From IMG/VR virus record IMGVR_UViG_2799112278_000002, positions 1 to 64,000 of that record: DNA of 64,000 nt; one strand, given 5' to 3'. This stretch comes from a virus. Its lineage: Duplodnaviria > Caudoviricetes. The notes beneath the pieces are model-generated. The model was not told the DNA's origin. It searched no databases and saw only the letters and a program-made list of their open reading frames with translations. Below, one piece after another: positions 551 to 44,710 of the stretch (position 1 is its first letter; each line of letters opens with the position of its first letter). Both the position numbers and the translations under genes were made by a program.

Positions 551-562
551 GCTGTATTTAAT

Positions 563-615
563 TGGTCGGAGCGACATGAGTTGAACATGCGGCCTCTACC
601 ACCCCAAGGTAGCGC
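563..615 (-). other. att core: 3' fragment of tRNA-Pro(GGG)
   Basis: Minus strand GCG-CTACC-TTGGGGT-GGTAG-AGGCC-GCATG-TTCAACT-CATGT-CGCTCCG-A-CCA gives anticodon arm, T arm and 3' acceptor strand. The 5' acceptor strand and D arm are absent. Confidence 0.85.
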
Positions 616-923
616 GGCAGTTTCATTATCGTAAACTAAAACACTCGTTCACCCTTGATTTACCTAGACGCATGCCGATTATTATGTCAATTTCTCTTTT
701 GCGTTTTGTGCCATGTTGTATCGGGTTATATCGGGTAGGTTGCAGTGATAATTGCAGTACGTTTTTTTGCTGCAAAAAGGTTAATTAGTGAGTACTTAAA
801 TCTATAAAACTAATAAAACTCGTAGTGCTTAAAACTGCTTTTTGCAAGATTACTGCAATCTAACCATTTTTCTTGTAGCACCATGCCACTTATTTAAAAT
901 ATAGCATACTACCAGGCATACTA

Positions 924-1112
924 CTACTCCAAAAGATAAGATAATATTTTCATAATCCCATCTACTACTATAACAAGCACCAACACCCGTATTAAACTTC
1001 TCTCATACCATTGACTCATAAACGATAACACATATACTACTAAACTAATCATAAACAAAGTATACAAATCAGTAGTCGCAGTCTTCATGATAGTTTTAGC
1101 TGCAGTTATCAT
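924..1112 (-). CDS. Small two-TM membrane protein, SpoIIIAC/AD-like
   Basis: 62 aa, hydrophobic; TAATG coupling to the upstream gene. Confidence 0.5.
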   Translation of the reverse strand: MITAAKTIMKTATTDLYTLFMISLVVYVLSFMSQWYERSLIRVLVLVIVVDGIMKILSYLLE

Positions 1113-1405
1113 TAGAATCCCATCCTTGTAAAAGTTCCATCAACTAATTTCCAAACAGTATCTAACACCAAGCCTACCGCAACACATTTAAGAACCAGAT
1201 CTATTCCACCGGACATTGTTTCGTGACCAAAATTATTACAAAGGGTAGTAAGTATCCATCTTGATATTGATAACCCAATCAAAATAATTACTGCAAATCC
1301 GGGTGTATTATATCCGATAGCAGATTGAATTACTGCAGTAAGTCCAGCAAAGCATACCGATAAATGCAGACTTGAAATTACCAAACAAATTATTAACGTC
1401 CGCAT
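1112..1405 (-). CDS. Small membrane protein, SpoIIIAC/AD-like
   Basis: 97 aa; the IGLSISRWILTTLCNNFGHETMSGGIDLVLKCVAVGLVL pattern resembles the SpoIIIAC/AD helix pair. Confidence 0.55.
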   Translation of the reverse strand: MRTLIICLVISSLHLSVCFAGLTAVIQSAIGYNTPGFAVIILIGLSISRWILTTLCNNFGHETMSGGIDLVLKCVAVGLVLDTVWKLVDGTFTRMGF

Positions 1406-1851
1406 AATAAAACCTCCCTCACTTCACAAACTTTTTTATCATCCAAATAGAAAACACTGCCTCCAAAGTCAATTTTTTTCTTACCCACTTCAATTCTGGT
1501 GTATCGCTTATTTCGGTTCAGCTGATTCTCGTATGTCAAGATCAATGTATTGTAATCAAAACTTATTGGCGTATCACCATATGCACACTTTTTCTCTAAG
1601 TACAAGCGTACCCAGTTAATTTTGACTTTGTTTTCATCAACATCATTAATGTAGTATACATTAGGCTGATCAATCTCCAACCTTACACGCTTTACCTTTT
1701 TTCGCTTATAAAGCTCAAGCATGCGTTTTCTGGCCATTCGCTGAGAAGGGAAAAACATTAGGGCCAATTGAAAGGTGTCCAAGCAATGATATTTCTCCAA
1801 CGCCTCTAGAATTTCTCGATCGCGCTTTTTTGCATATTTGAAATTATTCAT
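1393..1851 (-). CDS. Replication-relaxation family protein (wHTH; short, degenerate nuclease half)
   Basis: RDREILEALEKYHCLDTFQLALMFF..ARKRMLEL..PNVYY is typical of the Replic_Relax N-terminus; ATGA overlap with the FtsK stop. Confidence 0.7.
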   Translation of the reverse strand: MNNFKYAKKRDREILEALEKYHCLDTFQLALMFFPSQRMARKRMLELYKRKKVKRVRLEIDQPNVYYINDVDENKVKINWVRLYLEKKCAYGDTPISFDYNTLILTYENQLNRNKRYTRIEVGKKKIDFGGSVFYLDDKKVCEVREVLLCGR

Positions 1852-2909
1852 GTCATAGCCCTCCGGTCAAAGAGCGGAGCCTGTATTTCTATTAAAGCAT
1901 CATCAGTAGTTCTCCATAATGCACGTCCTGGTATCTTCTTCATTGTCACATACTGATCTAAGATCATGTTTGTATCAATTTTACTTGAACAGCTGAATGC
2001 CAATCGACCTATCAAGTTACTTTTCAAGTCTCCGAACTTTGATTCTTTCCCCAGAAACGAACTGCTAGGACGTTGACTTGCTAAAATAAGATGTATGCCG
2101 GTTGCAGCTGCTAATCTCAGCAAGGCGTCGATATGAGCTATGGCTTTTTTTGACTTAACTTCTCCGAGCTCATCTATGATAACAACAATCCTTTTTATCT
2201 CGCCATAATATTTGCGATACTCCTTAAAGTTCTCACATTCAACGTCGTAAAACAAATCCATTCTACGCCGCATTTCTAATTCAACTGCTTCTAGTGCACC
2301 TTCGATCTCTTCCACTGTGGTAAATAGCTTAATTCTATTTTTCAGATAGCTAAACTCACATCTTTTACAATCGCCAACTATAATTTCCGGCTGCAATGGA
2401 TTGTTAAGCAGTGTATAAATCCAACCACTTAGTGTATTACTTTTTCCGGTTCTAGTCGGACCACCGACTAATACATGGTAGGTATTATCAAGTGAAAAGG
2501 TTTGAAGTTCTCCATGTACGTCATAGCCTATAGGCAGTTTAATCTCATAATCATTTATTCCGATGTCTTCAAGATTAAACTTGTAATGCTTACCTATTGG
2601 CTTTTCAATTACTCGCATTATCAATGCTTTTCCCTTTGAAAAGAAAACACATTCACAGCCGGTTATAGATTCAAAATGACCACTACATTTTATAATATCT
2701 GAATGTGAATCGCCGGGAGCAACGTATATTTTGAACTCCCACCCCCAGGACTTTCGTTCTTGATATATTTTGGGCCTAATATCAGTCTCTTCCCACAAAG
2801 CATTAATCGTATGTCGCACGCTGCACGGGATCTCATATCCAATTTTTTTATAAAACCAGTTTTCTAATTTCCTGCAGACTGGCTTTAACAAATAATTATA
2901 TTGGCTCAT
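1848..2909 (-). CDS. FtsK/SpoIIIE-family ATPase without N-terminal TM domain
   Basis: Walker A GGPTRTGKS, Walker B VVIIDE, LILASQRPS, PGRAL. Start placed at the ATGA-coupled ATG 2909. Confidence 0.9.
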   Translation of the reverse strand: MSQYNYLLKPVCRKLENWFYKKIGYEIPCSVRHTINALWEETDIRPKIYQERKSWGWEFKIYVAPGDSHSDIIKCSGHFESITGCECVFFSKGKALIMRVIEKPIGKHYKFNLEDIGINDYEIKLPIGYDVHGELQTFSLDNTYHVLVGGPTRTGKSNTLSGWIYTLLNNPLQPEIIVGDCKRCEFSYLKNRIKLFTTVEEIEGALEAVELEMRRRMDLFYDVECENFKEYRKYYGEIKRIVVIIDELGEVKSKKAIAHIDALLRLAAATGIHLILASQRPSSSFLGKESKFGDLKSNLIGRLAFSCSSKIDTNMILDQYVTMKKIPGRALWRTTDDALIEIQAPLFDRRAMT

Positions 2910-3349
2910 AATTTTAACCTCTGCCACATTTTACTAACTATTGCCTTTCCTCCATCTACTACCTTTGAGATAATAGTTGTCTGTTGGCCTGGGACATCTG
3001 TGATGCTTTTAGAATTGGAACTTTGTTCCTTATCAGAATTAGAATTACGCTGACCGATCTCTTGCTCTTTTTCAACATAGGTTTTCTCTACCGTTGTCTT
3101 TTGATAAAAAGGAACTTGAAATACATTTCCATCAAGCAAAACACCCTTAAAGCCCTCTCGAATTGTAATTATTTTAGTTGTTTGATTACTAGTTTTATCG
3201 TTTGCTGTAGTTGAGCTATCATTGGATTTATCTACGATATTGCTGCTGTTATCCTTTTGGATTTTAGCCACATCATAAACAGGTGTAAGAGCAATTATGG
3301 CAGCTGCTATTACCGGTACTACTTTAAAAGTAATTGGTAGTTCAAGCAC
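2906..3349 (-). CDS. Membrane-anchored or secreted low-complexity protein
   Basis: N-terminal hydrophobic VVPVIAAAIIAL followed by S/N/T/K-rich stretches; GGGAGGG RBS. Confidence 0.65.
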   Translation of the reverse strand: MLELPITFKVVPVIAAAIIALTPVYDVAKIQKDNSSNIVDKSNDSSTTANDKTSNQTTKIITIREGFKGVLLDGNVFQVPFYQKTTVEKTYVEKEQEIGQRNSNSDKEQSSNSKSITDVPGQQTTIISKVVDGGKAIVSKMWQRLKL

Positions 3350-3382
3350 ATTGAACCCTCCCTTGCGATCATAATGGGAATC

Positions 3383-3562
3383 TCAATCATTATCCCACTT
3401 CCAGTCATCTGAGCACGAAGGGCAGCTTAGTGATTCCTCTTTTTGTTGCCATCCACCGCTCAAAGCGTTTTGCTCATATAGCCCAGGAACCAGTTGATTC
3501 TTTTCATTAATAGACCAACACTCACCACACTGGGGATTAAGACATTTAAACAGCCCGATCAT
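3383..3562 (-). CDS. 59-aa zinc-ribbon protein (below the ORF-track cut-off)
   Basis: MIGLFKCLNPQCGECW...LSCPSCSDDWKWDND, with an AGGAGAG RBS, filling the gap in the operon. Confidence 0.65.
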   Translation of the reverse strand: MIGLFKCLNPQCGECWSINEKNQLVPGLYEQNALSGGWQQKEESLSCPSCSDDWKWDND

Positions 3563-3577
3563 TTACTCTCACTCTCC

Positions 3578-3838
3578 TTACGCAAATAAAACACTCATAG
3601 CTTGCTTCGCCTGTTGTTGAGCGTCTTCACGTATGGCAACAGGCGAGGTATTTGAACCATTTGGTAAGTGAGCCGTTAAATATCTAAGAACAATTTCCTC
3701 TATGGTTTCTTCTTGATATTTACTGGCCATCTTTAGATCCAGTAAATTACGAACATACTCACTCCCTCCATTTAAATCAAAGAAATCCTTCTGTTCCTGC
3801 GTACATTTAAACCCGATGAACGCATTTAATTTCGTCAT
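3578..3838 (-). CDS. ParR-like small DNA-binding adaptor (RHH-like)
   Basis: 86 aa directly after parM; N-terminal FIGFKCTQEQKDFF..SEYVRNLL strand-helix-helix pattern. Confidence 0.6.
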   Translation of the reverse strand: MTKLNAFIGFKCTQEQKDFFDLNGGSEYVRNLLDLKMASKYQEETIEEIVLRYLTAHLPNGSNTSPVAIREDAQQQAKQAMSVLFA

Positions 3839-4757
3839 TTCTCGCCACCGCCAATTTATAGCAACCCCATGCGTTTGCCGTAATCGGCCGAGGATGCAAT
3901 ATAGCATTAGACCATATAGCCTTGAAATGAGGAAATAGAGGAATAGCTCCACCGCCACATATAACAACAGCATCAAATCTTGGTTGAGACTTCCAGGGGC
4001 CGATCATAATTTGTTGGACAATTGCATTGGCGAGGTTTTTATAATACGGTGCCGGATTTATTAAATCCAAATTATCTTCTACTTGATGAATAAGGATGTC
4101 TTTCTGTAATTTAATTTCTTTTTGCATGTCATTGTAGGCAGCCCACATACCAAGCGGCGCAAGTGTATCAGATAGCTCATCCTGATAAGTCATTTGGTAC
4201 ATGGCCGTAACATTAGTTGTTCGACTTCCGATATCAATCACACCAATGTTCTTGAACGAATAGCCATCTATGACCCGGCCTTTATTATCTAAAAACAAAT
4301 CCCACGCCGCGCAGCCAGCTTCCGGAGCAACAGTCACGTCTACCACTTCTAAGTTGACTACTTTAAAAGGGAACTTTATCCGGTATACACCTTCTAAGTT
4401 TCGTGCAAACGTTTTTCTTTGCACGCGATAGTCGGATATGGGCAGGCAAGTGACCGGTGAGCAACTAAGATATTGACGATCAGATAAATATGCAGCCATG
4501 GTTAACAACACAGTCTTCGTTACATCATCTGTCGATTTTTTCTTTTCGTAACCTATAAGCGTATCAGAATACTTTTTCGCTAAATTGCCGACAAAGGACC
4601 ATGAATCATTAATGGTTACGTCTAAATCATCGAGATGCTCTTTGCCATTAACCAATGTTCTTTCACGTCCGGGAGCAACAAACGCTGGAATAGTAATTTC
4701 CCTGCCATTCGCAACGGCCTTACCATAGTGATTACCCCCATTAAGTCCGGCCAACAC
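3807..4757 (-). CDS. parM: ParM/StbA-family actin-like ATPase
   Basis: GLNGGNHYGK (phosphate 1), VAPEAGCA, IDIGSRTTN (phosphate 2), VVICGGGA, ANAWG. Confidence 0.85.
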   Translation of the reverse strand: MLAGLNGGNHYGKAVANGREITIPAFVAPGRERTLVNGKEHLDDLDVTINDSWSFVGNLAKKYSDTLIGYEKKKSTDDVTKTVLLTMAAYLSDRQYLSCSPVTCLPISDYRVQRKTFARNLEGVYRIKFPFKVVNLEVVDVTVAPEAGCAAWDLFLDNKGRVIDGYSFKNIGVIDIGSRTTNVTAMYQMTYQDELSDTLAPLGMWAAYNDMQKEIKLQKDILIHQVEDNLDLINPAPYYKNLANAIVQQIMIGPWKSQPRFDAVVICGGGAIPLFPHFKAIWSNAILHPRPITANAWGCYKLAVARNDEIKCVHRV

Positions 4758-4865
4758 TATAAACCACCTCCATTAAATATTTGGTTTAACCGATGGTTTA
4801 ATATATGTATCATTAGCAATAAAGTTGCATATTCTAGCTATTAAATGGGCAAAAAAAATAATACC

Positions 4866-5099
4866 CTATTCCTTAGGGTATATAAGGAGGTCTTGCATAT
4901 TGGCATTTGGAAAGAATTTTACTAAGAATAACCACATAGTTAGCAATTGGTTACCGTTAGGAATATGACCGGTATTCTCCCACTTACAGTACATGGTATA
5001 TTCTACCTGGTAAAACTTCGCCATTTCCTTTTGTGTAACTTCTTTTCCCGTTTGGGCAGCTAATTGCAGCCGCCAATAGCGAAAATTATTTTTTATCAT
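4866..5099 (-). CDS. XRE-family HTH regulator
   Basis: VTQKEMAKFYQV..YCKWENTGHIP. Confidence 0.8.
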   Translation of the reverse strand: MIKNNFRYWRLQLAAQTGKEVTQKEMAKFYQVEYTMYCKWENTGHIPNGNQLLTMWLFLVKFFPNANMQDLLIYPKE

Positions 5100-5185
5100 T
5101 CTTTCACCTACCAGACAGCAGGAATACTTTGGTTATTTATGGTATTTCTACAAATTAGTTAATTTACCTTTAGGGAGGCTATTTA

Positions 5186-5911
5186 ATGAGAAAAAAGATT
5201 CTAGTTCCAATTATCACGTTAATCCTATCATTAATGCTCAATTCGGTGGTATTTGCTAAAGCGAATCACTGGAAAGACAACTCTTTTGATTTCTCCAGCA
5301 TACAAAAAATAGTTATCATGACATATTCATTCGACCAAGATATCCTTGATCCATTCGCCAGTCAAAAAACATCTGAGTATATTGCTGCAGAAATTGCGAA
5401 GCAAGATGTCCAGTTTTTAACGCTCGATCAAGTTATTAAGCAAATAGGCCAGGATCTTAACATTGATATGGCAGCAATCAAAAAACAAAATCCAAATCAG
5501 TTTTTCGATATTATAGCCACCAATATATCAAAATACGCAGATGCAGGTATTAAAATCAATGTATATCAAATGGGCTGGGTTAAACAATATATTCCCCCCA
5601 GTTCATTTAATTATACCAGCTACAACACTTCGTATATAAATGGGTATAATAGTAAGGGAACTAACTTTTCTGCTTTTGTCCAAACCCCACAAACAAATCA
5701 AGTAACTATACCAGGTGGATTTGAAGATTTTGCAACTGCATCAATGGCAATATCAGTTTACGATTTGAAGGATATTAAATTAATTTGGGGATATTCCGAT
5801 TATAAAAGTGATCAATCTCGCGCATTTAAAAAAGCAAGTCCAGAACAATCAATGAAAAAGCTTACTGAAGATGCTTTTAAAACGCTCCCCGTAAAGAAAA
5901 TAAAAAAATAA
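5186..5911 (+). CDS. Secreted/periplasmic protein (moron, opposite strand)
   Basis: Sec-type signal peptide ending VVFA; alpha/beta pattern reminiscent of DUF4136/LpoB-like folds; own RBS. Confidence 0.7.
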   Translation: MRKKILVPIITLILSLMLNSVVFAKANHWKDNSFDFSSIQKIVIMTYSFDQDILDPFASQKTSEYIAAEIAKQDVQFLTLDQVIKQIGQDLNIDMAAIKKQNPNQFFDIIATNISKYADAGIKINVYQMGWVKQYIPPSSFNYTSYNTSYINGYNSKGTNFSAFVQTPQTNQVTIPGGFEDFATASMAISVYDLKDIKLIWGYSDYKSDQSRAFKKASPEQSMKKLTEDAFKTLPVKKIKK

Positions 5912-8295: not shown

Positions 8296-11200
8296 TTACT
8301 TCTTTTCTTTTTTCAACACATTATCAGTTGCTTGCTTATAAATACTTTTTCCACCTTGCTTTTCTTGCAGCTGCTTTTGCGCTTTTTCAAAAATACTACC
8401 GGTACTGATTTTATTTTTAGTCTGAGTTTTCTTTTCAGGTAGAAATTCGCCTTTAAGTGCTTGATCAGCGATTATAACGGCTTCCCGGTTTAGTTGGTCA
8501 ATTTGCTCTCGCTTAGATTTAGAATCAATTGTTTGAGATACCAGTATGGTCTGTGATTGATCCCTGTTATCTTGCAGTGCCTTACTTGCCAACCGATACA
8601 TTTTTAAGTCCGGTGGAACAGGAACTTCATCGCGAAGCTCTTTTGTGCTTTTTCCTGTTGCTGCAGCTGTATCCATTAATTGCACTTTATGGGCCTGTTC
8701 AAGTTCCTCTAACTGCTTATAGAAGTCACCGATATTATCCGCATTGCGATAATTTTGAGTAAAGAAACGACGCACCACCGGCCATTCCTGCCAGTATCTC
8801 ATTGGGGCATTTTCGTATTTACCATAAGCGAGATCGATGGATTCAGTTATTGTAGTACCAACACCACCGGTATAACCACGAATGTAGTTATCTACAAACC
8901 GGGGAGATACGCCAAAAATTTCACCGACTTTTCTAGCGATCAATGTCGTACTGGGGCCATATTGACGTTCAGGCGGTAAAGTTTTTTCACCCTGAGGAAC
9001 AATGCTTTTATCCGAAAACAGACTGTAATTTGACATGTGTTCGTACACAGGTGTTATGGCCGTAGGTAAAAGAGTCGGCAACTGATTGGTAAGCAGCTTT
9101 CCCACTTGCTTGAAAGCGTCAGGATTATTTTGTACGGCCCATTCCATAAACCGAACCGGCATCGTTGCAAACATTGTTCCAGCCAAAAACGGTTTTGGCA
9201 CACTGAAAGTGAAAGTGTCATTGATTGGCACATTCCAGAACATATCTTTACGCCATTGCGGTAGTTTCTTGTATCGATCGTCATCTTTATACATCCACCA
9301 TAATAGCAGTGAAGGGATTGTAAGCAAGACTATATGCTTAACCCACGCTTGCATGGTTCGATCATACACAACATCCTTAACACTACCTTTACCCGCAGCT
9401 ACATCATTAATTTTTTCTTTTAACTCATTACCGCCAGTAAATAAGACTCTAAATACTTTATCCCAATCAAGAATAGTTACTTTACTAAATACCGCCACTC
9501 GATTCCATACAACGGATGCAGGGCCACCTTTTGAGAAATCTATCGTTAAATCTCTTGCATTAAAAGCTCTTTCCGGTAGACTGAATCCTTGTTCTTTCTC
9601 ACGAATATATTCACCGACACGCGGCGCAGACTCTACCATTTGCCCCACACGTTCCAATAACTCAATCATGTGCATCGGGCTAAACTTCCCTAAGGCAGTT
9701 TGTTTGCGTATCTTTTTTATTGCCTCTTGGGCGAAATTACGGTCAGTAGAATAAAAATCGGCCATGGCCGTCCCGGATGATACATATTCCCACCATAGCT
9801 TATCCTGCTTTGCAATAGCCATCATCCCTCTGAAAAAATCCCCTTTAGGCATATATCCGGATGGAGAGTTAACGTAGCTTGTAACCAAGTCACGCGAAAC
9901 GTTCACGGCTAGAAACGCTGGATTAAGAGAAACAAACCCCGCCCGGGCAACTCGTACTACCATACTTAAAAACTTCAAGAATAGGTTAGATGTATCGACT
10001 TCCTGCTCCATCATAGACTTGTATACTTCCGGCACGCCTATTTGATAAAACTTTGCCTTACCATTAACCAATACCTTAAATACACTATCTTTGTCTGATG
10101 CTCCGTTTCTTACAGGGCGTTTTGCAATGATAGATTCTATCTTGCCATTATCGCTATGGGTAATAATAAGCTCATTGCCTTTTTCATCTACCGGATTTCC
10201 ATCCTTGTCGGTATTCAACCACTTAGGCTCGTTTTTGCTATCATATTCAACAAAAGTTTCGCCCTTTTTGATAATGGTTTCAGCAACATCTTCAAGAGCA
10301 ACCTCTTTTTCTGCATATGCTATTTCTGGAACCTCTTCAATTAACCATCCCATATTGGCATGGTTGTCCGCAATATCAGCAAACAGCTGCTTAACTTTAT
10401 TACGTTCAGCTTGTTCAAGCATCTTGAAGACATTGTGTACTATTGACTCTGCCGGATTCACAATATCGCGTACACTGCCTACCATTTCTTTTAAACTATC
10501 GCCCAACTTTTCATATGCAGCTTCTTCGAAAACACGCATTAAGGGCACATAGTTCGGATATGCCTTTCTCAAGCCTTCCGCTTTTCCCTTTGACACAACG
10601 CCATAGTCAACCATGATATCCATTAGAGTATTACTAAAATCAACAATTTGCCTTCCTGCATTTACTATTTCCGGCCGTGCATCTTCAACTGTATTTAGCC
10701 AATCATCATAATCAAGCGGTGCTTCTTTTTTGTTTGCTACGGTAAGCATATGTTTAGAAACAACATACTCAAATAACTCTTGGTAAACCTCTTCATTTCG
10801 ATCTGCACCGATAGAGCTCATGATGTCAGACAACGGGACAAACTTACTGAAATCTACACCCGGATGGACTGCTTTGAGGCCATCACGTACAGCCTGGGCA
10901 TTAGTGCTTTTATTTTTGCCGATACCAAGCATGGCATTAGCCTTCCCTGCTAAGCCGCGGGTTAATAAGGCTTGAATATAAGGATTCTGTTCCATTGGGA
11001 GCTTTTTACCAATCAGCTTTTCCACCTGGTCAATTGCTTGTTTTATTGGAAAACGCCGCTCAACTAATTGCCGATAAACATAAGCCAACGCTTTACCAGC
11101 CTGTTCTTTACTTTTAGCAGACAGGGATCGCAGCGTAAGCTTTTCTTTTTGATCCCAAGAAATAACCCCACTTACTCTTTCCCTGGAAGTTTGGTTATAC

Positions 11201-14200
11201 CATCGATACATCATATCTTGAATCAATCTTACATCGCGAATTTTTGAACCAATTGCCTTCTCAAACTCATTAGTAAAGTTAGGGTACTGAGCAGTATTGC
11301 CAGTAACATAATCAATAAAAAATTGCCCTACGCCGCCTTTGAGTTCAATAGCATGAGGCAATTCACTTAGTCTAAACTGATTGTCTAAGAGTTCTCCAAT
11401 TGACTTTAGCAGCCCAGGGAAATCATAAGCTTTTTGGCTTCGGATAACATTTGCAAATTCTTTAAATTCATTTGAAGATGCTGCTCTACCCCACCGTACC
11501 GGTGCAAATAACTCCGTAATCTTGTCACGTATCGATCTACGGCTAATTTTTTGAACATTGGGTTTCGTAAATTTAAACTCCAACTTATCCGGCACTTTTT
11601 CTGAAGCGGCTCCTGCTCTTACCTGTGTGTTTGTTGCAGAAATTACATCTGCAGCTTTTGGGGGCTGCTGTTCGTTTTGCTGATAAGTTATTGAGCCATC
11701 TTGGTTTTCAATCCGCTTCCAGCCACGTTTTTCAAGCCCTGCCATCATACGCTTGTTTTGTTCTGTAAAGTCGGTTTTTCCATCTTTGGCAGCAGGCCGG
11801 AATGTCATTTGACCTTTTGCTTCAGCTTTTCTATCTTCCGCAGCCTTTGGCTCCATGTAGTTCGACTGACTTCTCCCTTGTGTTTGCTTTAGTACATCTG
11901 TAAAAACATCAGGATTCTCTGATAAATAATAGGCCAATCCCTCTTGCTCAAAAAGTTTATCGAATAAGCTAAATTGCTGCTTGCTTAAAGTATCTTTTGC
12001 TAAAGCATAAAGCGCAACCAAATCAGAATATGTTTTATCACCATCACCGAGGCGCCGCAAATTAGAGTTAATTTCACGAATATCACTATCTTGATTTTGA
12101 ATAAACCGTTTTATCAACTTGTCTAAATTCCGCTCACTTCTAATGATGTCAATGAGCTTTTCGTATGTGAGTTTGTCATTACCTCGAAGCCCTTGAAGTA
12201 CGGTATTTCCTTCGACTATCCATTTTTCTTTAATATAGCTAAGCACTTCATTATCGAAAACACCATTGTGGTCCATTCCATGAATAGTTTCATGAACGAA
12301 TATTTGAGCTAAGTCATCACCAAAACGACTTGGATTAAAGATAACCTTTCTCTCAAGAGGTAGGTATCTGGCCATCTGCAAAGATCGAATTCCGGAAAAA
12401 TCCTCTACAGTTCCAAGTGCATAAGTAACCTTGCCGGCCGCTATGAATTTTATAATTTGTTGAGCTAACTCACCATGAAATTCATCAATCGCATTTAAAA
12501 TTTGATCTACTTGTTCTTTTGATAAGCTGCTCTCAAAGCGTTCTCGTACTCTTGCCCTTTCATCAAAAGATTTCTCAGATTCGTTTCGGCCCATTCCGAT
12601 TCCATTGGATCTTCCCCGGTTATTTCGATTATCTTTTTCCGGGCCTCTTCCTCCAGGCTCTTGTTTTCCGCTTTGTCCACCATTGCCACCTCCAGCAACA
12701 TCACTTGTACGTTTATTAGCCGCGGTATCCCGCACTTCCTTCCATACACTACCGATTACAGATCTAAAGTTATTCCACATATGACCAAGAGTTTCACGCA
12801 TCTTCGCCATCCACTCTTTACCGGTTGTATTACCTTGCTCCATTAAATGCTGGCCTAATCGGACTAAACGCGGAATTGCTTCTTTTGCTTTATTGATGTA
12901 GGGAAGAAGTGCTGCTTCGATGTCAACGTCATCAAATTTCCCGAAAGTAGGATCAAGCCCTACCGCCAGCTTATCAATACCTATATCTTGCTTTTTATCC
13001 TGAGCGAATTCGTCTAAAAAAGCTTTTCTATCTGCAGCATTTTCAAATGCAAATCCTTTAAGTGCTCCACCTTTATTAAAACTGTTGTACCAGCCATTAT
13101 GTTGCTTAGCAATTTTAGATATTTTACTGAAATCATCACCCAAATGCTTCGTGGGAGTAGCAACATACAACGTTTTTAAGGTTTTCGTATGCTTAAATTC
13201 GCCAAGATCGAAGTTTACAGTTTCGACATTTTGATCCTGCACAACTTCAAGCTGAGATTGTTCTGACTTAATAGCTCTCTCAGGCATTGAAAGGTTTTCT
13301 AACCGGTCAAATAACTCATTAATATTATCGGCATTAGAAAGGTCAATATTTCGCTGCTGCAATTTGTTAAGCTGTTCATTGTCTTTCTCTCTATACTTTT
13401 CGATAATGACAATCTTCGTTCTAATACTGGTACCGGCTCGTTCAAATGTAACAGCAGGAAGTTTAACCGCCCCAACAAGATAAGCATCTTCAGCTGCATC
13501 TGATTCCATCCAACGCTCAAATCGCCTATCAGCTAGTCCACCATCGGGAATTAACGCGACAATTCTACCCCCATTATATAAGTGCTGAAATGCTTTAGCT
13601 ACATGTTCTATTGCTGTTTTGCCACCATGGCCATAAGGCGGGTTCATTATGATTGAATGAAACTTATTGATTATGTGATAGTTTTCAAATCGCTCAGCAA
13701 CAAGCCTTGCCGGACTGTTCATCGCAGCTAATGGGCCAAGCTCATAACTTGGCTCAATCATTACATGATCGCCTTTTTCCGGAAAAAATCTAGCAATAGC
13801 TCCATGACCAGCTGAAGGTTCAAGCGCCCTTTCTCCTTCTTTCATATCTGCCCACTCGACCATTTTTAAACCGACTGGCTCAGGAGTAGCAAAATAATCC
13901 GTTCCCTCAGCCGCCTTACTTCTGCTTGTCTTCTTCTGCTGACCAAAGTAGTATGATATAGCTCTTTTGAAATTGGTCATTTCCTGCCGACTTGCCCGAT
14001 CCCCGGCCTTTCCACCCTTACCCTCTCCAGGGGCACCGGCCGGATAATCATCACTCAATTGATATGCATCAATAAAAGCTTCTCTTAACCTTCGTGCATC
14101 TTGCCCTAATGCAAGGTTTTCAGCCGTGGTAGCACGTTCAGCTATTTTAGTCGCAAATGTATAACGTTCAAAACTCGTTCCTGTATTCAGATATCTAAAT

Positions 14201-17200
14201 ATAGCATCCGATTTTTGTCCTACTCGGTAAATACGTCCTTCAATTTGTATTGCTGCTGTCGGTTTTACAGGCATGCCAAGATTGATGAGTACTCTTTGAT
14301 GTTTGCCAGTAGTATCGTGTAAACTAATCCCTTCCCGGCCAGCATCAGACTGAACCACAAGTAAACTCTTTTCACCGTCATCCCGATTAAATACATCAAC
14401 ATTATTCCTGCGCACCTTATCTGGAACTGTACCATTGAAGAATAGAGCTTTTTCCCCAAAGGAAGCCTTCATTTGAGCAATTGGAGACTTCAAATCACTA
14501 AAATTCAGATTGATTAAATCACGTCGCTTTGCTGAAAAGCTATTGTATTGTTCCCGAATATCATTTGGTACATAATCAAACTTAAACGGATGGAACCCCC
14601 CGCCTTTGTTAAAATCATGGAATACCACTACCTTGCGTCCTAGCGCAATATGTTCTTTAATCATATTCACGGCATGCCGCGATTTAATTGATTCTAAAAG
14701 ATACATTCGATCATGGTATTTAAAGCGTTCCATTACAAAGTCATATAGCTCACGGTACTCACCTCCATCGGTTTCCCATAACCACTGAAGGCCTTCATCA
14801 ATTTTAGCACCAATTGCATCATTTACCAGCGAAAACTTACGATCGTAGTCTTTATCTACAGAAAGCATTCGGCCCGAAAGAGCGCCTTGCTTGCGCAGCC
14901 ATTCATGGAATTGTTGTTCCATTACTTCATTATCAACTTGTGCATCTGGTTTTGTCAGCTTATTGTATCTCATGCGATAACCAAAATGGTTAATAAAGAA
15001 TTTTTCCCGTGCATCAGGAGCGTTATAAGCTTGAGAATCTGAACTTTCTCCATAGTTAAAGAGAAATCCCTCAGCATAGTCAATGTTCTCGACATAAGCA
15101 AAAGGCGTAGCAGATAAAAATAAAACTCGCGGTCTATCTTGCGGCTTAATTGCATCCCATTCTTTGAAATATTTCTCCCGTAACGAATTAACTTTTGCCG
15201 ATATTTCTCTCGCCTTACTTTCAAGAACAGGTATTTTGGCGAGACTTTTTTCATCTTCAGACTTTTCAAGAAGCCTTAATTCTTCCCAAGCATCATGCTC
15301 CTGCTGCTTGAGTTCTTTTTCGATATTATTAAAACGAGTGTAATAACCTCTTCTATGAAAAGCAATTGCACGGAGATTATCTGCAGCCCCTGTAACGCCA
15401 CCATTTTGACTACTTGCCAAGTAGTGTGATTCATCAGTAACAATCAAATCCCAATTGCGACTCGTAAGCTCTTGGTTTTGATTAAGATTTGCGTATGTTG
15501 TAATAGTAATACCGGTACCTGCAGATTTGGTATCATCCAATTTTGATATCGTCAGGTTTAGATTTTTCCCCGAATTAACCCACCCATCAATAATTTTGCT
15601 GTTAGGTGCAGCAATAAGAATATTATCCTTGCCTTGCATGGCAAATCGCTTTACGACACCAAGGCCAGAGTATGTTTTACCGGTACCGGTACCATTTGTA
15701 AACAGTACACCATATCCATCGGGCAGTTTAAATCTTTGTTCAGCAAAATGAACATCTTCTTGTTGTTCTGGCATCAAAAAAGGCAGCGTATCCCGGATGT
15801 TATCCAGGTCTGCTACCTTGACACTAATAGAATCAGCTTTTTTCTGCGCAGCTAATTTTTCTGAAGTTTCGGTTCTGTCTGCAGAAGATTCAATAACTGC
15901 TTCTGCTGCTCTTGGGTCAGAAGGTACTCCCGGGAGGCCAGTATTATCGCTTCCTCCAAAGAGGTCACTTCCGGAATGGCGTTTCTTATCCAAGGATGAT
16001 TTTGAGCGTATTCCCTTATTCCCTTCGCTTCCGCTACCAAGGGAGCCACTGTCAAGTACGCCTGCACGACGATCTGATCCAGCCCCGTCGCTTCTAGCCT
16101 CGTCGCCTCTTCCTCCATCGCTTCGGCTATTTCCTGCTGGTCCATCGGGAAGTATTGCTGACCCCATTCCGTCTCGATCGGACAAGTCTGTGCTATTTCG
16201 TTCCATATCCGCGCTGCTATCCCTACCATTAACCTCACCTTCTTTCTTTGATTGTACTTCAGCTTCCGTTTTTTCCGCAACATCATTTTTAAATCCTGGC
16301 CACTCAGATACGCCATTATAAATGGCATCAATTATATTATCGTACTCAGAACCTATATCTTCATTTATACGGCGCTTAACCTCTTCTTTACCGGTAATAC
16401 CATCTTGATATAAAACACCAACGTATTCAAACATGGTATTAGCCAAATCACTGTCGTACTTAACATCAACAGGCCATGATGTAATTGACTTCCAGACACT
16501 ATTTAAAAAAGGTTCAATTTTATTACCAACCGTCTGCAGCATAACTTCTGACCAGGATGTAAAGGAATTAATTCCACGCTGCATGTGAATAGCGCCCACC
16601 TTAAACGCGGCACTCATCAGGGCTGGATTAAATACAGGATTCGAAGAAATGTTCTGCAACTCTTTTTGTAATTCTTTAAGTGCATCTTGCAATGCGGCAT
16701 CCGAATCATCTACGATATTCATTTTTTTAGATTGCTTCGGTTTCTTACCAGCCTTTTCAAGCAATTTATTTTTTAAGCGATTACGATTATCTTCACTGCC
16801 ATTAAAGCCACCTTTACCTTCACCTTGTGCCAGTGCTTCGGGAGAATCATTACGCACTTCTTTAGCTGCTTCATCCGGATTAACTTCGGCATTCTTATCA
16901 ACTATTTCCGGCCGTACATCCTCAGCTTGATCTATAACCGAGGCCTTTTCACTTGACTGAATAATTGGAGCAACATCATTTACTGGTTTTCCAATTTCTC
17001 TGGCAACCGGTATTGCATCTTTTGCTGCTGTTTGAATACTTCGAGAGTCTTTTGTGCCACTGGACTCATTTGCTCGTAAATATTCGTCGAGGGCCGGGGT
17101 AACTTCTTCTCTGATTTGCTTGATTCCATTTAAAGCTGCCTCCATATCGTTATAAAAGTCAACATCTTGCTCAGATATTTGTGGCCCATATGTTGGGTCA

Positions 17201-19596
17201 GTATACCCATTACGCAAATGATCTTCGGCTGTCTGCCGTAGGATATACTCCCAATCCTCTTTCTTTGGATATCCGACATATTCCTTACCAGTTTTTCCGC
17301 TGGTCATTTGGCGCTTGTAGGTTTCCAGTGCATCACGGTACCATTTATAATTCATAGATCCACCGCGACTAACAACACCCTGTTTCATTTGTCCACGCAA
17401 AAGGTTTATATAATCAGCCACCATGCGATTACGGGTAGATTCAATTTCGCTTTGGACAAGATTAATCGGGGCTTTATGATGATCCAATACATCTACAAAT
17501 AGCTTGCTCAAATCATTAAGCTTATTATAATTATCTGCCCGTTTCAGTTCATCGATCGTTAGTCTTTCACGGACATTCGGTTGAATAACCGAGTTTTCAT
17601 AAAGTTTTACTCTACTGCCAAACCCAAGATCCCGGGCAATATTAGCAGCCGCAGCTAAATCTTGGCGTTGCACAGCATTCGCTAAACGCCTACGCATCCC
17701 GGCTTGCCAAGAATCCGGTAGAGGTTCTGCTTTTTGAGGAATAAGTCTTTGCCTCAATTCGGCTAATGCCTGAATACCGGCTGCGTTAGGTCCATCTTGA
17801 CCTGGCAATACAATACTGACATCGCTCTGGGCTGCCGGAGTGATGATATTTGCTGGTTTTTGCCCAGTAATATCAAGCAACTGTTTCTCTGCCTGCAGCC
17901 TATCTTCCTTTTGCTTTATTGAATCCTGTCTTTCTAACTCTTGCTGCTTTTGTTCCTGCGTCATAAACGGCTGTATTGGTTCAACACTTGGCAAATCCGG
18001 CCGTTGCAGGACAGAATATTCATGAGGCATATTATCGGCCGGCAAGGTAGTTTGTTGAATACTATTTATAAAAGCGTTACGTTGCTGCTCAAGATTTAAA
18101 AGGAGTTCCGTACCTTTAGGCGTAATTGGTGTAATTCCATCTTCAGCAGAAATATCTCCACTATCAATAGCTTGCATGATTGCTTCGACTTCAAAATTGT
18201 TCAGATCTTCTTCCGATCTAAAAGCAGGTGTTTTCATTTGAGGCAGATCCGAATTGCCATTGATCACTGGCTGTTCGCTTTGGGTCCCGTTCTTCTCGGA
18301 AGTAATATTCTCTGCAGGCTTTTCTTTAGAGAAATCTCCGTTTTTAACACGCGAAATCGTACCTGGTACATTAAACAGAATCCCAGCGCCGAAACCACCG
18401 GCAGCTTGCTCCATCAAATCATCATCCCAGTTTAAGGGATTTATTTGTGCTTCTGGAATTTTACTACGGGCTTCCATTAAATTCTTGCGCCTCTGTTCAC
18501 CTTCAGGTGTCGTAGCGTCTGCCATCTGGATTTCCTTATCCAAGGCTTCAATTAAAGCCGAACGCTTGACGTTTTCTTGCCCGACTTCCTCACCGGCGTT
18601 TTGTAATCCCGCGATTCCATAACGGGCAGATTCACCCAATACATTTCTCAGAATTCGCTGTGGTCCCTTGAAAGGCAATTCAGTAAAAGCAGTTGCGATT
18701 TCGAATGCATTAGATCCAGTCAAAAGCTTAATGTTTAACTCAACAACCCTATTACGAATCTGGGATGCTTGTTCATGCGAAAGTCCGGACTCAATTGCCT
18801 CATTATAGGCATCGTTTCCCTCAACTTGCGCTTCAGCATAGGCAGCAGGTGCTTGTATATAAGCCCCGCTTAATACATTGCCTGCATATTTTGATAACAC
18901 TGCCGGAGCGTTCGCAGCAATTTTAGCAGCTGTAGGAGAAAGCTCTGACAACTTTTCAAAAGCATTTACTGCAGCCGGAACATTCTTGGCAGCGCCGATA
19001 CCACGGCCAAGTACATTCATCGCTGCATATTCTCCTGATTGCGATAATGCAGATGGATTCCTTGACTTTAATCCTGTTAATGCGGCCAGGCCAAGTCCAA
19101 CACTGGTAGGAGCCATAGTAGTTAAAGTCTGACCCCACCACTCAGGAGAATAGCTCTCATACTTCTGCTGGGGTACTAATTTTTGTAATCCATCACCGAT
19201 ATTATCAATCTTCTTAATTAAAGGAGTTTGTTTTTCATTCCATTCCTGGTCCGTCATATATTGAGGTTTGTGCATCGTTTTAACAGCGTTATTGATAAGC
19301 GAAACTGCAGTACCAATACCATAAGGGATTGCGTCAGAGATTGCCTTAGTGACTCCTGAAAACTTGGGCGGCCCATCATTTGCAACACTAGCTTCAGAAG
19401 AAAGCTCCCATGGCTCTAACCCACCAAAGTCAACTTGAATATCCTCTGGATGGCTAGAAGAAAGGCCGTCAAGCGACGGCCTTTCAAATGTTAATGGGAT
19501 ATTTGCATATTGTTCTGCCTGGACATCCATTATTTTTTGTTCATTTTCTTTTATTGCAGCCTGCAAGTCCTGCGAAAAATTACGTGTAAAGCTCAT
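8296..19596 (-). CDS. Giant polyvalent ejection protein: SF2 helicase + adenine MTase + HExxH peptidase + LPD38-like C-terminus (DarB-like)
   Basis: GTGTGKT, DESH, LSATP, GREGISLHD, QIEGRIYR; DYFATP, EPSAGHG, NPPY; HETIH; RDLTIDF..WRKDMFW..PKPF. Confidence 0.88.
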   Translation of the reverse strand: MSFTRNFSQDLQAAIKENEQKIMDVQAEQYANIPLTFERPSLDGLSSSHPEDIQVDFGGLEPWELSSEASVANDGPPKFSGVTKAISDAIPYGIGTAVSLINNAVKTMHKPQYMTDQEWNEKQTPLIKKIDNIGDGLQKLVPQQKYESYSPEWWGQTLTTMAPTSVGLGLAALTGLKSRNPSALSQSGEYAAMNVLGRGIGAAKNVPAAVNAFEKLSELSPTAAKIAANAPAVLSKYAGNVLSGAYIQAPAAYAEAQVEGNDAYNEAIESGLSHEQASQIRNRVVELNIKLLTGSNAFEIATAFTELPFKGPQRILRNVLGESARYGIAGLQNAGEEVGQENVKRSALIEALDKEIQMADATTPEGEQRRKNLMEARSKIPEAQINPLNWDDDLMEQAAGGFGAGILFNVPGTISRVKNGDFSKEKPAENITSEKNGTQSEQPVINGNSDLPQMKTPAFRSEEDLNNFEVEAIMQAIDSGDISAEDGITPITPKGTELLLNLEQQRNAFINSIQQTTLPADNMPHEYSVLQRPDLPSVEPIQPFMTQEQKQQELERQDSIKQKEDRLQAEKQLLDITGQKPANIITPAAQSDVSIVLPGQDGPNAAGIQALAELRQRLIPQKAEPLPDSWQAGMRRRLANAVQRQDLAAAANIARDLGFGSRVKLYENSVIQPNVRERLTIDELKRADNYNKLNDLSKLFVDVLDHHKAPINLVQSEIESTRNRMVADYINLLRGQMKQGVVSRGGSMNYKWYRDALETYKRQMTSGKTGKEYVGYPKKEDWEYILRQTAEDHLRNGYTDPTYGPQISEQDVDFYNDMEAALNGIKQIREEVTPALDEYLRANESSGTKDSRSIQTAAKDAIPVAREIGKPVNDVAPIIQSSEKASVIDQAEDVRPEIVDKNAEVNPDEAAKEVRNDSPEALAQGEGKGGFNGSEDNRNRLKNKLLEKAGKKPKQSKKMNIVDDSDAALQDALKELQKELQNISSNPVFNPALMSAAFKVGAIHMQRGINSFTSWSEVMLQTVGNKIEPFLNSVWKSITSWPVDVKYDSDLANTMFEYVGVLYQDGITGKEEVKRRINEDIGSEYDNIIDAIYNGVSEWPGFKNDVAEKTEAEVQSKKEGEVNGRDSSADMERNSTDLSDRDGMGSAILPDGPAGNSRSDGGRGDEARSDGAGSDRRAGVLDSGSLGSGSEGNKGIRSKSSLDKKRHSGSDLFGGSDNTGLPGVPSDPRAAEAVIESSADRTETSEKLAAQKKADSISVKVADLDNIRDTLPFLMPEQQEDVHFAEQRFKLPDGYGVLFTNGTGTGKTYSGLGVVKRFAMQGKDNILIAAPNSKIIDGWVNSGKNLNLTISKLDDTKSAGTGITITTYANLNQNQELTSRNWDLIVTDESHYLASSQNGGVTGAADNLRAIAFHRRGYYTRFNNIEKELKQQEHDAWEELRLLEKSEDEKSLAKIPVLESKAREISAKVNSLREKYFKEWDAIKPQDRPRVLFLSATPFAYVENIDYAEGFLFNYGESSDSQAYNAPDAREKFFINHFGYRMRYNKLTKPDAQVDNEVMEQQFHEWLRKQGALSGRMLSVDKDYDRKFSLVNDAIGAKIDEGLQWLWETDGGEYRELYDFVMERFKYHDRMYLLESIKSRHAVNMIKEHIALGRKVVVFHDFNKGGGFHPFKFDYVPNDIREQYNSFSAKRRDLINLNFSDLKSPIAQMKASFGEKALFFNGTVPDKVRRNNVDVFNRDDGEKSLLVVQSDAGREGISLHDTTGKHQRVLINLGMPVKPTAAIQIEGRIYRVGQKSDAIFRYLNTGTSFERYTFATKIAERATTAENLALGQDARRLREAFIDAYQLSDDYPAGAPGEGKGGKAGDRASRQEMTNFKRAISYYFGQQKKTSRSKAAEGTDYFATPEPVGLKMVEWADMKEGERALEPSAGHGAIARFFPEKGDHVMIEPSYELGPLAAMNSPARLVAERFENYHIINKFHSIIMNPPYGHGGKTAIEHVAKAFQHLYNGGRIVALIPDGGLADRRFERWMESDAAEDAYLVGAVKLPAVTFERAGTSIRTKIVIIEKYREKDNEQLNKLQQRNIDLSNADNINELFDRLENLSMPERAIKSEQSQLEVVQDQNVETVNFDLGEFKHTKTLKTLYVATPTKHLGDDFSKISKIAKQHNGWYNSFNKGGALKGFAFENAADRKAFLDEFAQDKKQDIGIDKLAVGLDPTFGKFDDVDIEAALLPYINKAKEAIPRLVRLGQHLMEQGNTTGKEWMAKMRETLGHMWNNFRSVIGSVWKEVRDTAANKRTSDVAGGGNGGQSGKQEPGGRGPEKDNRNNRGRSNGIGMGRNESEKSFDERARVRERFESSLSKEQVDQILNAIDEFHGELAQQIIKFIAAGKVTYALGTVEDFSGIRSLQMARYLPLERKVIFNPSRFGDDLAQIFVHETIHGMDHNGVFDNEVLSYIKEKWIVEGNTVLQGLRGNDKLTYEKLIDIIRSERNLDKLIKRFIQNQDSDIREINSNLRRLGDGDKTYSDLVALYALAKDTLSKQQFSLFDKLFEQEGLAYYLSENPDVFTDVLKQTQGRSQSNYMEPKAAEDRKAEAKGQMTFRPAAKDGKTDFTEQNKRMMAGLEKRGWKRIENQDGSITYQQNEQQPPKAADVISATNTQVRAGAASEKVPDKLEFKFTKPNVQKISRRSIRDKITELFAPVRWGRAASSNEFKEFANVIRSQKAYDFPGLLKSIGELLDNQFRLSELPHAIELKGGVGQFFIDYVTGNTAQYPNFTNEFEKAIGSKIRDVRLIQDMMYRWYNQTSRERVSGVISWDQKEKLTLRSLSAKSKEQAGKALAYVYRQLVERRFPIKQAIDQVEKLIGKKLPMEQNPYIQALLTRGLAGKANAMLGIGKNKSTNAQAVRDGLKAVHPGVDFSKFVPLSDIMSSIGADRNEEVYQELFEYVVSKHMLTVANKKEAPLDYDDWLNTVEDARPEIVNAGRQIVDFSNTLMDIMVDYGVVSKGKAEGLRKAYPNYVPLMRVFEEAAYEKLGDSLKEMVGSVRDIVNPAESIVHNVFKMLEQAERNKVKQLFADIADNHANMGWLIEEVPEIAYAEKEVALEDVAETIIKKGETFVEYDSKNEPKWLNTDKDGNPVDEKGNELIITHSDNGKIESIIAKRPVRNGASDKDSVFKVLVNGKAKFYQIGVPEVYKSMMEQEVDTSNLFLKFLSMVVRVARAGFVSLNPAFLAVNVSRDLVTSYVNSPSGYMPKGDFFRGMMAIAKQDKLWWEYVSSGTAMADFYSTDRNFAQEAIKKIRKQTALGKFSPMHMIELLERVGQMVESAPRVGEYIREKEQGFSLPERAFNARDLTIDFSKGGPASVVWNRVAVFSKVTILDWDKVFRVLFTGGNELKEKINDVAAGKGSVKDVVYDRTMQAWVKHIVLLTIPSLLLWWMYKDDDRYKKLPQWRKDMFWNVPINDTFTFSVPKPFLAGTMFATMPVRFMEWAVQNNPDAFKQVGKLLTNQLPTLLPTAITPVYEHMSNYSLFSDKSIVPQGEKTLPPERQYGPSTTLIARKVGEIFGVSPRFVDNYIRGYTGGVGTTITESIDLAYGKYENAPMRYWQEWPVVRRFFTQNYRNADNIGDFYKQLEELEQAHKVQLMDTAAATGKSTKELRDEVPVPPDLKMYRLASKALQDNRDQSQTILVSQTIDSKSKREQIDQLNREAVIIADQALKGEFLPEKKTQTKNKISTGSIFEKAQKQLQEKQGGKSIYKQATDNVLKKEKK

Positions 19597-44707: not shown

Positions 44708-44710
44708 ATT

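Follow-up and report, generated by a model that had tools for sequence, protein, structure and literature searches.

Cassettes in which a gene for an FtsK-type ATPase is followed by a gene of the Replic_Relax family have been annotated for approximately 20 years, and they are carried by many temperate and virulent phages, as well as phage-plasmids, of Firmicutes. Here we analyse such a cassette in the window, i.e., the whole stretch of 64,000 nucleotides that makes up positions 1 to 64,000 of the tailed-phage record IMGVR_UViG_2799112278_000002, where it lies in one operon with a ParM/ParR-like partition pair. A "DNA translocation operon" comprising a MobC-like relaxase, a translocase and membrane anchors, plus an actin-like gene, has been described in phage 0305phi8-36 (PMC3357382, Pathria 2012). 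Homologues of this operon were found in SPO1, GBSV1 and the Gamma/Wbeta group, and the actin-like gene is associated with it in both 0305phi8-36 and SPO1 (PMC3357382). A 2.5-kb insert holding an FtsK gene, a replication-relaxation gene, a helix-turn-helix (HTH) gene and one small gene distinguishes two B. subtilis phages of 96% identity (PMC9476937), and the cassette genes often neighbour plasmid segregation systems (PMC9658697; also PMC11526630). Roles in sporulation or in DNA injection have been speculated upon (PMC4113786, PMC3853050), and as such the idea that these genes pump DNA into the forespore is not new.

The Replic_Relax family (PF13814) is the MOBC relaxase family (PMC5357655), with an HHpred link to MobC of CloDF13 (PMC3357382), and a PD-(D/E)XK-type motif consisting of H, D, E and K residues has been assigned to it (PMC3424549). 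On the partition side, the actin-like AlpAC system of the integrated prophage CGP3 serves the transport and replication of phage DNA (PMC4446434), chromosomal ParMR loci have been characterised (PMC12270681), and partition proteins can stimulate conjugative transfer (PMC4949242, PMC12421886, PMC8716806). The original prediction for this locus, which was made from the letters of the window, reasoned that an integrating phage needs no partition system; this is contradicted by CGP3 AlpAC and by the chromosomal ParMR loci.

We tentatively propose, with rather less than even confidence, that the operon acts on extrachromosomal DNA of the phage itself, which ParMR would position and which a membrane-docked motor, guided by the Replic_Relax protein, would pump as double-stranded DNA (dsDNA).

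A nine-gene operon with a soluble motor and a Replic_Relax protein lacking most of the nuclease motif

Nine open reading frames (ORFs) on the minus strand span positions 924-5099 of the window (Table 1). The genes parM and parR overlap by 32 nt, the true start of parR being the ATG at 3838, while ATGA couplings join TM147 to the FtsK-type motor gene and the motor gene to RR152. RR152 and TM97 overlap by 13 nt, and a TAATG coupling links TM97 to TM62. At the remaining two junctions, between the ParR-like and Zn-ribbon genes (15 nt) and between the Zn-ribbon gene and TM147 (33 nt), a good ribosome-binding site is present in each gap. The reality of the genes was assessed from the ratio of non-synonymous to synonymous substitution rates (dN/dS) of each gene against the IMG/VR contig L004, which is 97% identical. 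This ratio ranged between 0.04 and 0.19 for all nine genes, synonymous changes being many and non-synonymous changes few, and because of these low values the ORFs of 59 and 62 codons are also considered real genes. The locus holds nine tightly coupled, real genes under purifying selection. The original prediction of eight co-directional genes behind an XRE regulator, mostly coupled by overlaps, ATGA or TAATG, was borne out by the coordinates, the couplings and the dN/dS values.

Table 1. Coordinates of the operon genes, associated sequence elements and further phage features in the window (aa, amino acids).
Feature	Position	Strand	Description
attR	555..615	.	61-bp direct repeat duplicating the 3' part of tRNA-Pro(GGG); boundary of the prophage
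Non-coding operon tail	616..923	-	Short direct repeats, imperfect inverted repeat, hairpin and ACTACGAGTTTTATTAG motif; candidate cis site
TM62, 62 aa	924..1112	-	Small membrane protein, judged by its hydrophobic sequence
TM97	1112..1405	-	Signal-peptide-like N-terminus (A followed by GL, invariant), then two hydrophobic helices; pilin-like topology
RR152, 152 aa	1393..1851	-	Short Replic_Relax-fold protein; winged helix-turn-helix (wHTH, residues 1-72) and alpha-4beta-alpha core
Motor ATPase, 353 aa	1848..2909	-	Soluble FtsK/TcpA-type alpha-beta motor; Walker A and B, QRPS
TM147	2906..3349	-	N-terminal transmembrane helix, Ser/Thr/Asn-rich linker, small C-terminal domain; ATGA-coupled to motor; candidate anchor
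Zn-ribbon protein, 59 aa	3383..3562	-	CxxC...CxxC; lineage-specific
ParR-like adaptor, 86 aa	3578..3838	-	Ribbon-helix-helix (RHH) type; overlaps the end of parM by 32 nt
ParM-type actin-like ATPase, 316 aa	3807..4757	-	Assigned from profile and PDB matches
Hairpin and T-run	4861..4881	-	Directly after the XRE stop; possible attenuator
XRE-type regulator, 77 aa	4866..5099	-	Private regulator, assigned from motif, position and homologues
Operator-like dyad	5121..5148	-	GAAATAC-N14-GTATTCC; within the divergent promoter region of 86 bp, shortly upstream of XRE
Secreted/lipoprotein-like gene	5186..5911	+	Divergent from XRE
3766-aa ORF	8296..19596	-	Polyvalent protein, assigned from its L007 counterpart
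Two tRNA genes	44634..44787	-	Tyr-GTA and Asn-GTT

The motor matches PF01580 (2.7e-12; 47 bits against a cut-off of 24) and phrog_1358 (6e-45), and the GxxGxGKS, DE and QRPS motifs are conserved in its alignments. Its AlphaFold model (predicted local distance difference test, pLDDT, 83.7) has as best Foldseek match the soluble motor of pCW3 TcpA (6o1w; E 1.8e-22, template modelling (TM) score 0.71/0.71 over 351 columns), and FtsK motors come next and are nearly as good (6e-20). Unlike FtsK/SpoIIIE proper, the protein consists of the alpha-beta part only, with no hydrophobic segment and no gamma domain (no PF09397). This places a constraint on the system, as the motor has neither an anchor nor a DNA reader of its own, and both would be provided by separate, coupled genes that flank it. 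TM147, which has homologues at the equivalent position in L004 and in the related loci L005, L007 and L010 and a dN/dS of 0.10, is the candidate membrane anchor of the motor.

On the other side of the motor, RR152 belongs to the Replic_Relax/MOBC family (PF13814). Compared directly with PF13814 it scores below threshold (E 0.016; 15.8 bits against 25.3). An exhaustive phmmer search with RR152 returned 53 related clusters among 1.8 billion representatives, and 30 of the 44 aligned relatives match PF13814. The model of RR152, with a pLDDT of 94.7, consists of a winged helix followed by the alpha-4beta-alpha core and aligns as a whole to a Replic_Relax cluster of the Atlas (TM score 0.70, 134 residues). 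In a fold search of the PDB the wHTH found matches and the C-terminal core found none. A tblastn search with the RR subfamily against the GenBank phage and PLSDB plasmid collections gave no match at 1e-3.

The family's nuclease motif is retained by long relatives of at least 200 aa, which carry the H in 29, the D in 30, the E in 29 and the K in all 31 of 31 cases. RR152 has N, a gap, E and a gap at these positions, such that only the E is kept, and most of the short subfamily likewise lacks H, D and K. With three of the four motif residues gone, RR152 is predicted not to be an active relaxase or nuclease, and yet its dN/dS is 0.05 despite the missing residues. Since strong purifying selection persists although the nuclease motif has been lost, what is conserved in the Replic_Relax partner is probably a role in recognising DNA or in docking, and not nicking. 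For the same reason, i.e., the absence of nuclease residues in RR152, what is moved is most likely dsDNA, in the mode of FtsK, SpoIIIE and TraB, and not a nicked single strand. The earlier label "relaxase-like" holds for the family and the fold and fails at the conserved H, D and K.

These two proteins also invite a rival reading as a conjugation-type mobilisation module. The FtsK protein would then be a TcpA-like coupling protein, RR152 part of a relaxosome at an oriT near attP, and TM97 a pilin-like protein, with the circle or phage-plasmid leaving the cell either by its own minimal pore or by a type IV secretion system acting as helper, and with ParMR delivering the substrate as in plasmid R1. 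Such a role is suggested by pCW3 TcpA being the best solved-fold match of the motor, by PF13814 being the MOBC relaxase family (PMC5357655; CloDF13 MobC link in PMC3357382), and by the order of coupling protein, relaxase-like gene and att/int, which is that of streptococcal integrative and mobilisable elements (IMEs; PMC5357655) and of BtCS33 and GBSV1. The M23 peptidoglycan hydrolase that follows the cassette in L079 and the enhancement of conjugation by partition proteins (PMC4949242, PMC12421886, PMC8716806) point the same way. TM97 has a signal-peptide and two-helix transmembrane topology, and the corresponding gene of Bacillus phages has been annotated as TrbC/VirB2 (PMC9658697); however, TM97 has no TrbC/VirB2 match, and although the leader and two-helix topology fits, none of its nine homologues (0/9) matches the TrbC/VirB2 Pfam models. 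Furthermore, RR152 could not be the nicking enzyme with three of four nuclease-motif residues absent, and VirB4/VirD4 (PF12846, PF02534, PF03135) are not above cut-off in the 99.98%-complete host genome and were not found in the phage. A minimal pore is hard to picture in a diderm-type host (Negativicutes), and the cassette is carried by virulent phages too (PMC3357382), for which conjugative spread would make little sense. We consider mobilisation unlikely.

Partition genes, gene order and prophage setting

ParM is, on its profile and PDB matches, a type II partition actin-like ATPase. It matches PHROG 691 "partition protein" (5e-39), ALP_N (2.4e-11) and MreB-like_C (2.2e-9), both above cut-off, and NCBIfam ParM (2e-13), while among the solved Clostridium ParMs of the PDB it matches 6izr and 6ixw at 1e-9 to 1e-10 (best 6.5e-10); its match to Dh-cParM1 is at 0.002. 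The ParR-like protein shows a strand-helix-GxS-helix pattern of RHH type when its sequence is read; it has no hidden Markov model (HMM) or PDB match, and its label comes from this motif, its position and its homologues, one of which (39% identical) lies directly after the ParM C-terminus in L010. A search for a centromere (parC) found short two-copy repeats only and no clear iteron array. The Zn-ribbon gene, with a dN/dS of 0.19, was found in the window and L004 only.

To place the operon in a wider context, relatives of the motor were traced into their contigs, into related genomes and into 80 FtsK loci of IMG/VR. The RR gene lies directly downstream of FtsK in 33 of the 80 IMG/VR loci, and a TM97-family gene is also present in 31 of these 33. 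The conserved unit is XRE-FtsK-RR-TM97, and ParMR is an occasional add-on. BtCS33 and GBSV1 have a matching layout beside integrases, and their partner proteins are true PF13814 members. The co-directional order ParM-ParR-x-anchor-FtsK-RR-TM is shared by the window and L004 (FtsK 97% identical), and the order of the window is found again in L010 (FtsK 39% identical, co-directional) and, followed by an M23 peptidase, in L079 (26%). ParM/ParR thus run in the same direction as the cassette in three or more distant lineages, and this ties the cassette to episomal DNA handling. In L012 (29%) ParM/ParR are divergent from FtsK, in L005 (79%) ParA/RHH/Rep_3 take the place of ParMR, and in L007 (76%) there are no par genes. 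In L079, a distant viral contig, a serine recombinase gene comes first (L079:4846-10506), then ParM, genes of 82 and 91 aa, FtsK, RR216, TM82 and Peptidase_M23, such that a peptidoglycan hydrolase is appended. The closest non-identical relative of the cassette (L005:3522-6286) stands beside Rep_3, an RHH protein and a ParA-type ATPase, and because the L005 phage looks like a phage-plasmid and the window phage integrates, the cassette appears to move between two lifestyles.

This distribution bears on the possibility that the two modules are independent neighbours, with ParMR serving the positioning or replication of phage DNA or episome partition, as CGP3 AlpAC does, and with the cassette being an unrelated moron. 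A common transcript would then exist only because accessory genes accumulate between the lysis genes and attP. Most cassettes are without a par gene (L007, L017-L019), including those of three related genomes of the host's order, in which the cassette lies between the lysis genes and the prophage end. L005 has ParA/RHH/Rep_3, on the opposite strand, instead of ParMR, and XRE and the cassette occur together without ParMR in at least 8 lineages. In the window ParMR sits between XRE and the cassette in an insertion-like manner, and GC is low across this arm (36-39%, against 41-47% in the remaining phage). However, the co-directional order ParM-ParR-x-FtsK-RR-TM is seen again, with overlapping starts, where FtsK is 39% (L010) or 26% (L079) identical, and three par types are found directly beside the cassette (PMC9658697, PMC11526630), which is above expectation for two rare unrelated modules. 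Mere adjacency is, in our judgement, improbable. The predicted segregation/translocation operon survives in so far as a partition pair, an FtsK motor, a Replic_Relax-type DNA binder and membrane proteins stand together, but not as one obligate nine-gene machine.

The operon lies at the far end of the minus strand of a prophage, past the lysis genes and 308 bp before attR. The window corresponds to C1:132092-196091 of a 4.6-Mb, 33-contig genome, in which the second copy of the 61-bp repeat (C1:216830-216890, 98% identical) forms the 3' portion of an intact tRNA-Pro(GGG). Beside this copy are a tyrosine integrase, a cI-like HTH gene and an early operon with Rad52-type, SbcC-like, UvrD and pol III beta genes. 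The repeats delimit an integrated temperate phage of 84.2 kb with nearly all genes on the minus strand, and this repeat pair, with one copy inside the tRNA gene beside the integrase, confirms the location at a prophage end given in the original prediction. The possibility that a distinct IME or satellite had integrated in tandem next to the prophage was ruled out, as the att repeat has two copies only, flanking the whole 84-kb phage. An Rfam search of the gap at 300-930 found no RNA gene, the tRNA-like stretch being the att duplicate of tRNA-Pro, and nucleotide comparison of the region with known phages showed no similarity except for the tRNA-like 46 bp. Since the divergent gene for a secreted protein parts the arm from the late operon, the operon arm is taken to be its own transcription unit.

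EF-G of the host clusters at 90% identity or above with proteins of Anaerospora sp., placing it in the Negativicutes, and the genome encodes Spo0A and the spoIIIA operon, because of which it is considered a spore-former. By these markers the host is an Anaerospora-like, spore-forming Negativicute, and the sporulation-capable setting that had been predicted is upheld on the host side. On the phage side, the predicted SpoVS is present as a homologue (E 3e-34), and the phage encodes at least one, possibly two, proteins of the sigma-70 family, which may include the predicted SigF/G-like sigma (window 38786-39031 (-) and 57888-58574 (-), and C1:198141-198281, for SpoVS and sigma proteins together).

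Expression of the arm would be governed by the XRE-type regulator, for which the only profile match is a weak one to RstR and whose label has no Pfam support. Small HTH homologues precede the cassette in L004, L007, L017-L019 and L055-L064, and in eight divergent cassettes the dyad, as GAAnTAC-N14-GTATTCC, is kept shortly upstream of XRE. This dyad is probably the operator of the XRE repressor, and its conservation fits a private, autoregulated repressor. Between the regulator and parM, the hairpin after the XRE stop may act as an attenuator. A secreted or lipoprotein-like gene is divergent from XRE in several prophages (in the window, and at L018:5933-6547 and L019:10593-11210); the protein of the window belongs to no Pfam family, and it may be a surface or exclusion protein using the same divergent promoter region.

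A private repressor, a moron-like position, low GC and a patchy spread (3 of 40 genomes of the order; 10 of the 301 sampled from the phylum) are also what a defence or superinfection exclusion system could show, in which an FtsK/HerA-type ATPase, a nuclease-fold partner and membrane effectors would sense or expel foreign DNA or abort infection. Gain or loss of the cassette in one piece (PMC9476937), a caspase-like gene attached to the cassette in RBClin15 (PMC11526630), the resemblance of the ATPase to the mad8 and SspH ATPase modules of PADLOC, and the presence of HerA-nuclease defence complexes among the weaker fold matches of the motor are compatible with this. However, what PADLOC returned was generic ATPase similarity (mad8, SspH) and one weak PDC-M09B, with no multi-component match, and RR, TM97 and TM62 had no PADLOC match. 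The motor fold scores 0.71 against TcpA/FtsK and 0.47 against HerA, the nuclease motif is gone from RR152, and both repeated par/rep linkage, which is atypical of defence systems, and the presence of the cassette in virulent phages argue against defence, which we regard as very unlikely.

Proposed handling of phage DNA

Under the reading that we favour, i.e., handling of the phage's own extrachromosomal DNA, two accessory modules would have been fused: a type II ParM/ParR pair, and a cassette of XRE, anchor, motor, RR, TM97 and a small membrane protein. We infer the steps of binding, docking and pumping from the gene identities, operon structure, synteny, motif loss and purifying selection given above. 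The substrate would be the excised circle, or a replicating or infecting phage genome. XRE would hold expression of the operon low via the conserved dyad. Once the operon is expressed, ParR would bind a centromere-like site and ParM filaments would bring the DNA to the membrane or pole. RR152 would bind a specific site, probably within the 308-bp tail next to attP, and recruit the motor. The flanking genes would supply an anchor and a DNA reader in trans to a soluble, hexameric motor. The cassette is tied to episome handling because ParMR is in the same predicted transcript and because par/rep genes stand beside the cassette elsewhere.

The 308-bp tail is a candidate cis site of parC, clt or oriT-like type. 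It holds GCATACTAC twice, ACCCGATAYA twice and an imperfect 17-nt inverted repeat (733-749/849-865), and the ACTACGAGTTTTATTAG motif downstream of the last gene is conserved in L004, L005 and L007. A structured DNA or RNA element was sought in 728-872, and the folding z-scores of -1.6 to 0 are not exceptional.

As to the destination, we favour a vertical one, in which the phage genome would be kept in the correct compartment as a division or sporulation septum closes. This is the weakest step of the proposal. We lean weakly towards it because no mating-pore genes were found in phage or host, because virulent phages that infect spore-formers also carry the cassette, and because of the sporulating host and the phage-encoded SpoVS. 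Spore entrapment is possible, and this locus offers no positive evidence for it. The bolder version, in which a split SpoIIIE/TraB-like dsDNA pump of anchor, motor and nuclease-dead reader, fed by ParMR, actively carries the phage's extrachromosomal genome across a septum, into the forespore of a diderm spore-former or, without a capsid, into a neighbouring cell, is doubtful. If it were true that the pump moves phage DNA into spores or between cells, this would amount to capsid-independent persistence or spread of a phage.

Several observations weigh against handling of phage DNA by the operon as proposed here. To our knowledge, the function of the cassette has not been shown experimentally in any phage. 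Its deletion in 0305phi8-36 caused no growth defect (PMC3357382). ParM is near 2 and ParA near 1 of the 33 RR-bearing viral loci, such that the co-occurrence anticipated by the original prediction holds for FtsK-RR-TM97 (31 of 33 loci) and, as the full order, for L010 and L079, but not for ParM in general. Approximately 90% of the surveyed cassettes are without a detectable par gene within 8 kb, a census in which the ParM model is narrow and par presence is therefore a lower bound, and ParMR and the cassette may thus be independent. The closest solved fold (TcpA) and the sole characterised Replic_Relax members, i.e., MOBC relaxases (PMC5357655, PMC3357382), suggest conjugation over segregation. 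No centromere or RR binding site is definable, the repeats of 616-923 being short and its folding ordinary. With regard to sporulation, Spo0A is present in all 10 RR-positive genomes but also in 255 of the 301 genomes (85%) of the phylum sample, and is therefore uninformative; no properly spaced -35/-10 pair of a sporulation-type promoter was seen upstream of XRE when read by eye, with no model; and an integrated prophage enters spores passively anyway.

The two small membrane proteins at the end of the operon had been called "SpoIIIAC-like" in the original prediction, a likeness that was rejected. In a six-frame search of the genome with PF06686 only the host spoIIIA operon on C10 was found, neither protein has a Pfam match to SpoIIIAC, and hhalign gives probabilities of 1.9% (TM97) and 0.2% (TM62). 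For TM97, a weak shape match to SpoIIIAC, involving a low-confidence Atlas model, is the sole remaining lead. In an alignment of 9 TM97 homologues, an A followed by G at the end of the signal-like segment is invariant. TM62 has homologues in L004, L005 and L007, a dN/dS of 0.17 and no family match.

Elsewhere in the phage are two tRNA genes and an ORF of 3766 aa, the L007 counterpart of which has ddrB-ParB, helicase, LPD3 and ART-PolyVal domains and so identifies it as a polyvalent protein. Just beyond attR, a Sir2-family gene of the host (L001:17124-17944 = C1:131123-131943) appears to be split into two ORFs that cover profile positions 1-49 and 80-180, which may reflect a frameshift or a pseudogene.

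Comparison with known systems

FtsK, SpoIIIE and Streptomyces TraB share the alpha-beta motor fold with the protein of the window, and we consider that the gene order of anchor, motor and wHTH mimics their domain order of transmembrane segment, linker, alpha-beta and gamma. Unlike these proteins, the three functions would be divided among different polypeptides, the wHTH belongs to the Replic_Relax type and is not a gamma domain, and recognition repeats were not identified.

Modules of Firmicute conjugative elements and IMEs that pair TcpA with a non-canonical relaxase (pCW3; Tn916/ICEBs1; streptococcal IMEs) and MOBC pairs (pAD1 TraW/TraX, CloDF13 MobB/MobC) resemble the cassette in the motor fold (6o1w, TM score 0.71) and in having the ATPase gene directly upstream of a DNA-processing gene, near att/int. 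Plasmids of the pCW3 family carry ParMRC too (PMC9426499). The window differs from all of these in that its motor is without a transmembrane domain, its RR protein is without catalytic residues and its carrier is a complete tailed-phage genome; furthermore, mating-pore genes were not found in the window phage or the host.

The partition pair, with an actin-like ATPase followed by a small, overlapping putative RHH-type adaptor, is like ParMRC, CGP3 AlpAC and the chromosomal cParMR loci (PMC4446434, PMC12270681, PMC8026635). As in those systems, it belongs to an integrated element and stands beside genes for a Cro/CI-type regulator and a lysis-type amidase. Unlike in those systems, ParMR is joined to an FtsK cassette in one operon; no centromere was identified, and the solved ParMs are only distantly similar.

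The locus is most directly comparable to the phage DNA translocation operon (0305phi8-36 orf200/201/203/207; SPO1; GBSV1; Gamma/Wbeta/Fah; BtCS33 ORF21-23; B. subtilis 268TH007), in which an FtsK-type ATPase is followed by a Replic_Relax wHTH protein (PMC3357382, PMC9476937, PMC4113786). Flanking small membrane proteins and an HTH regulator, as accessory genes, are common to both, as is, in the temperate phages, the placement between the lysis genes and int/attP. The FtsK protein of the window is approximately 25-27% identical to those of BtCS33 and GBSV1. The host here is an Anaerospora-like Negativicute and not a member of the Bacillaceae, and the locus extends the cassette to phages of Negativicutes. 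Unlike the known operon, the window has a short RR form of 152 aa without H, D and K, and it adds an upstream ParM/ParR-like pair in the same operon, as well as the Zn-ribbon protein and TM62. While the cassette itself has already been described, three features are new here: a short, nuclease-dead form of Replic_Relax, the fusion with ParMR in one operon and a host from the Negativicutes.

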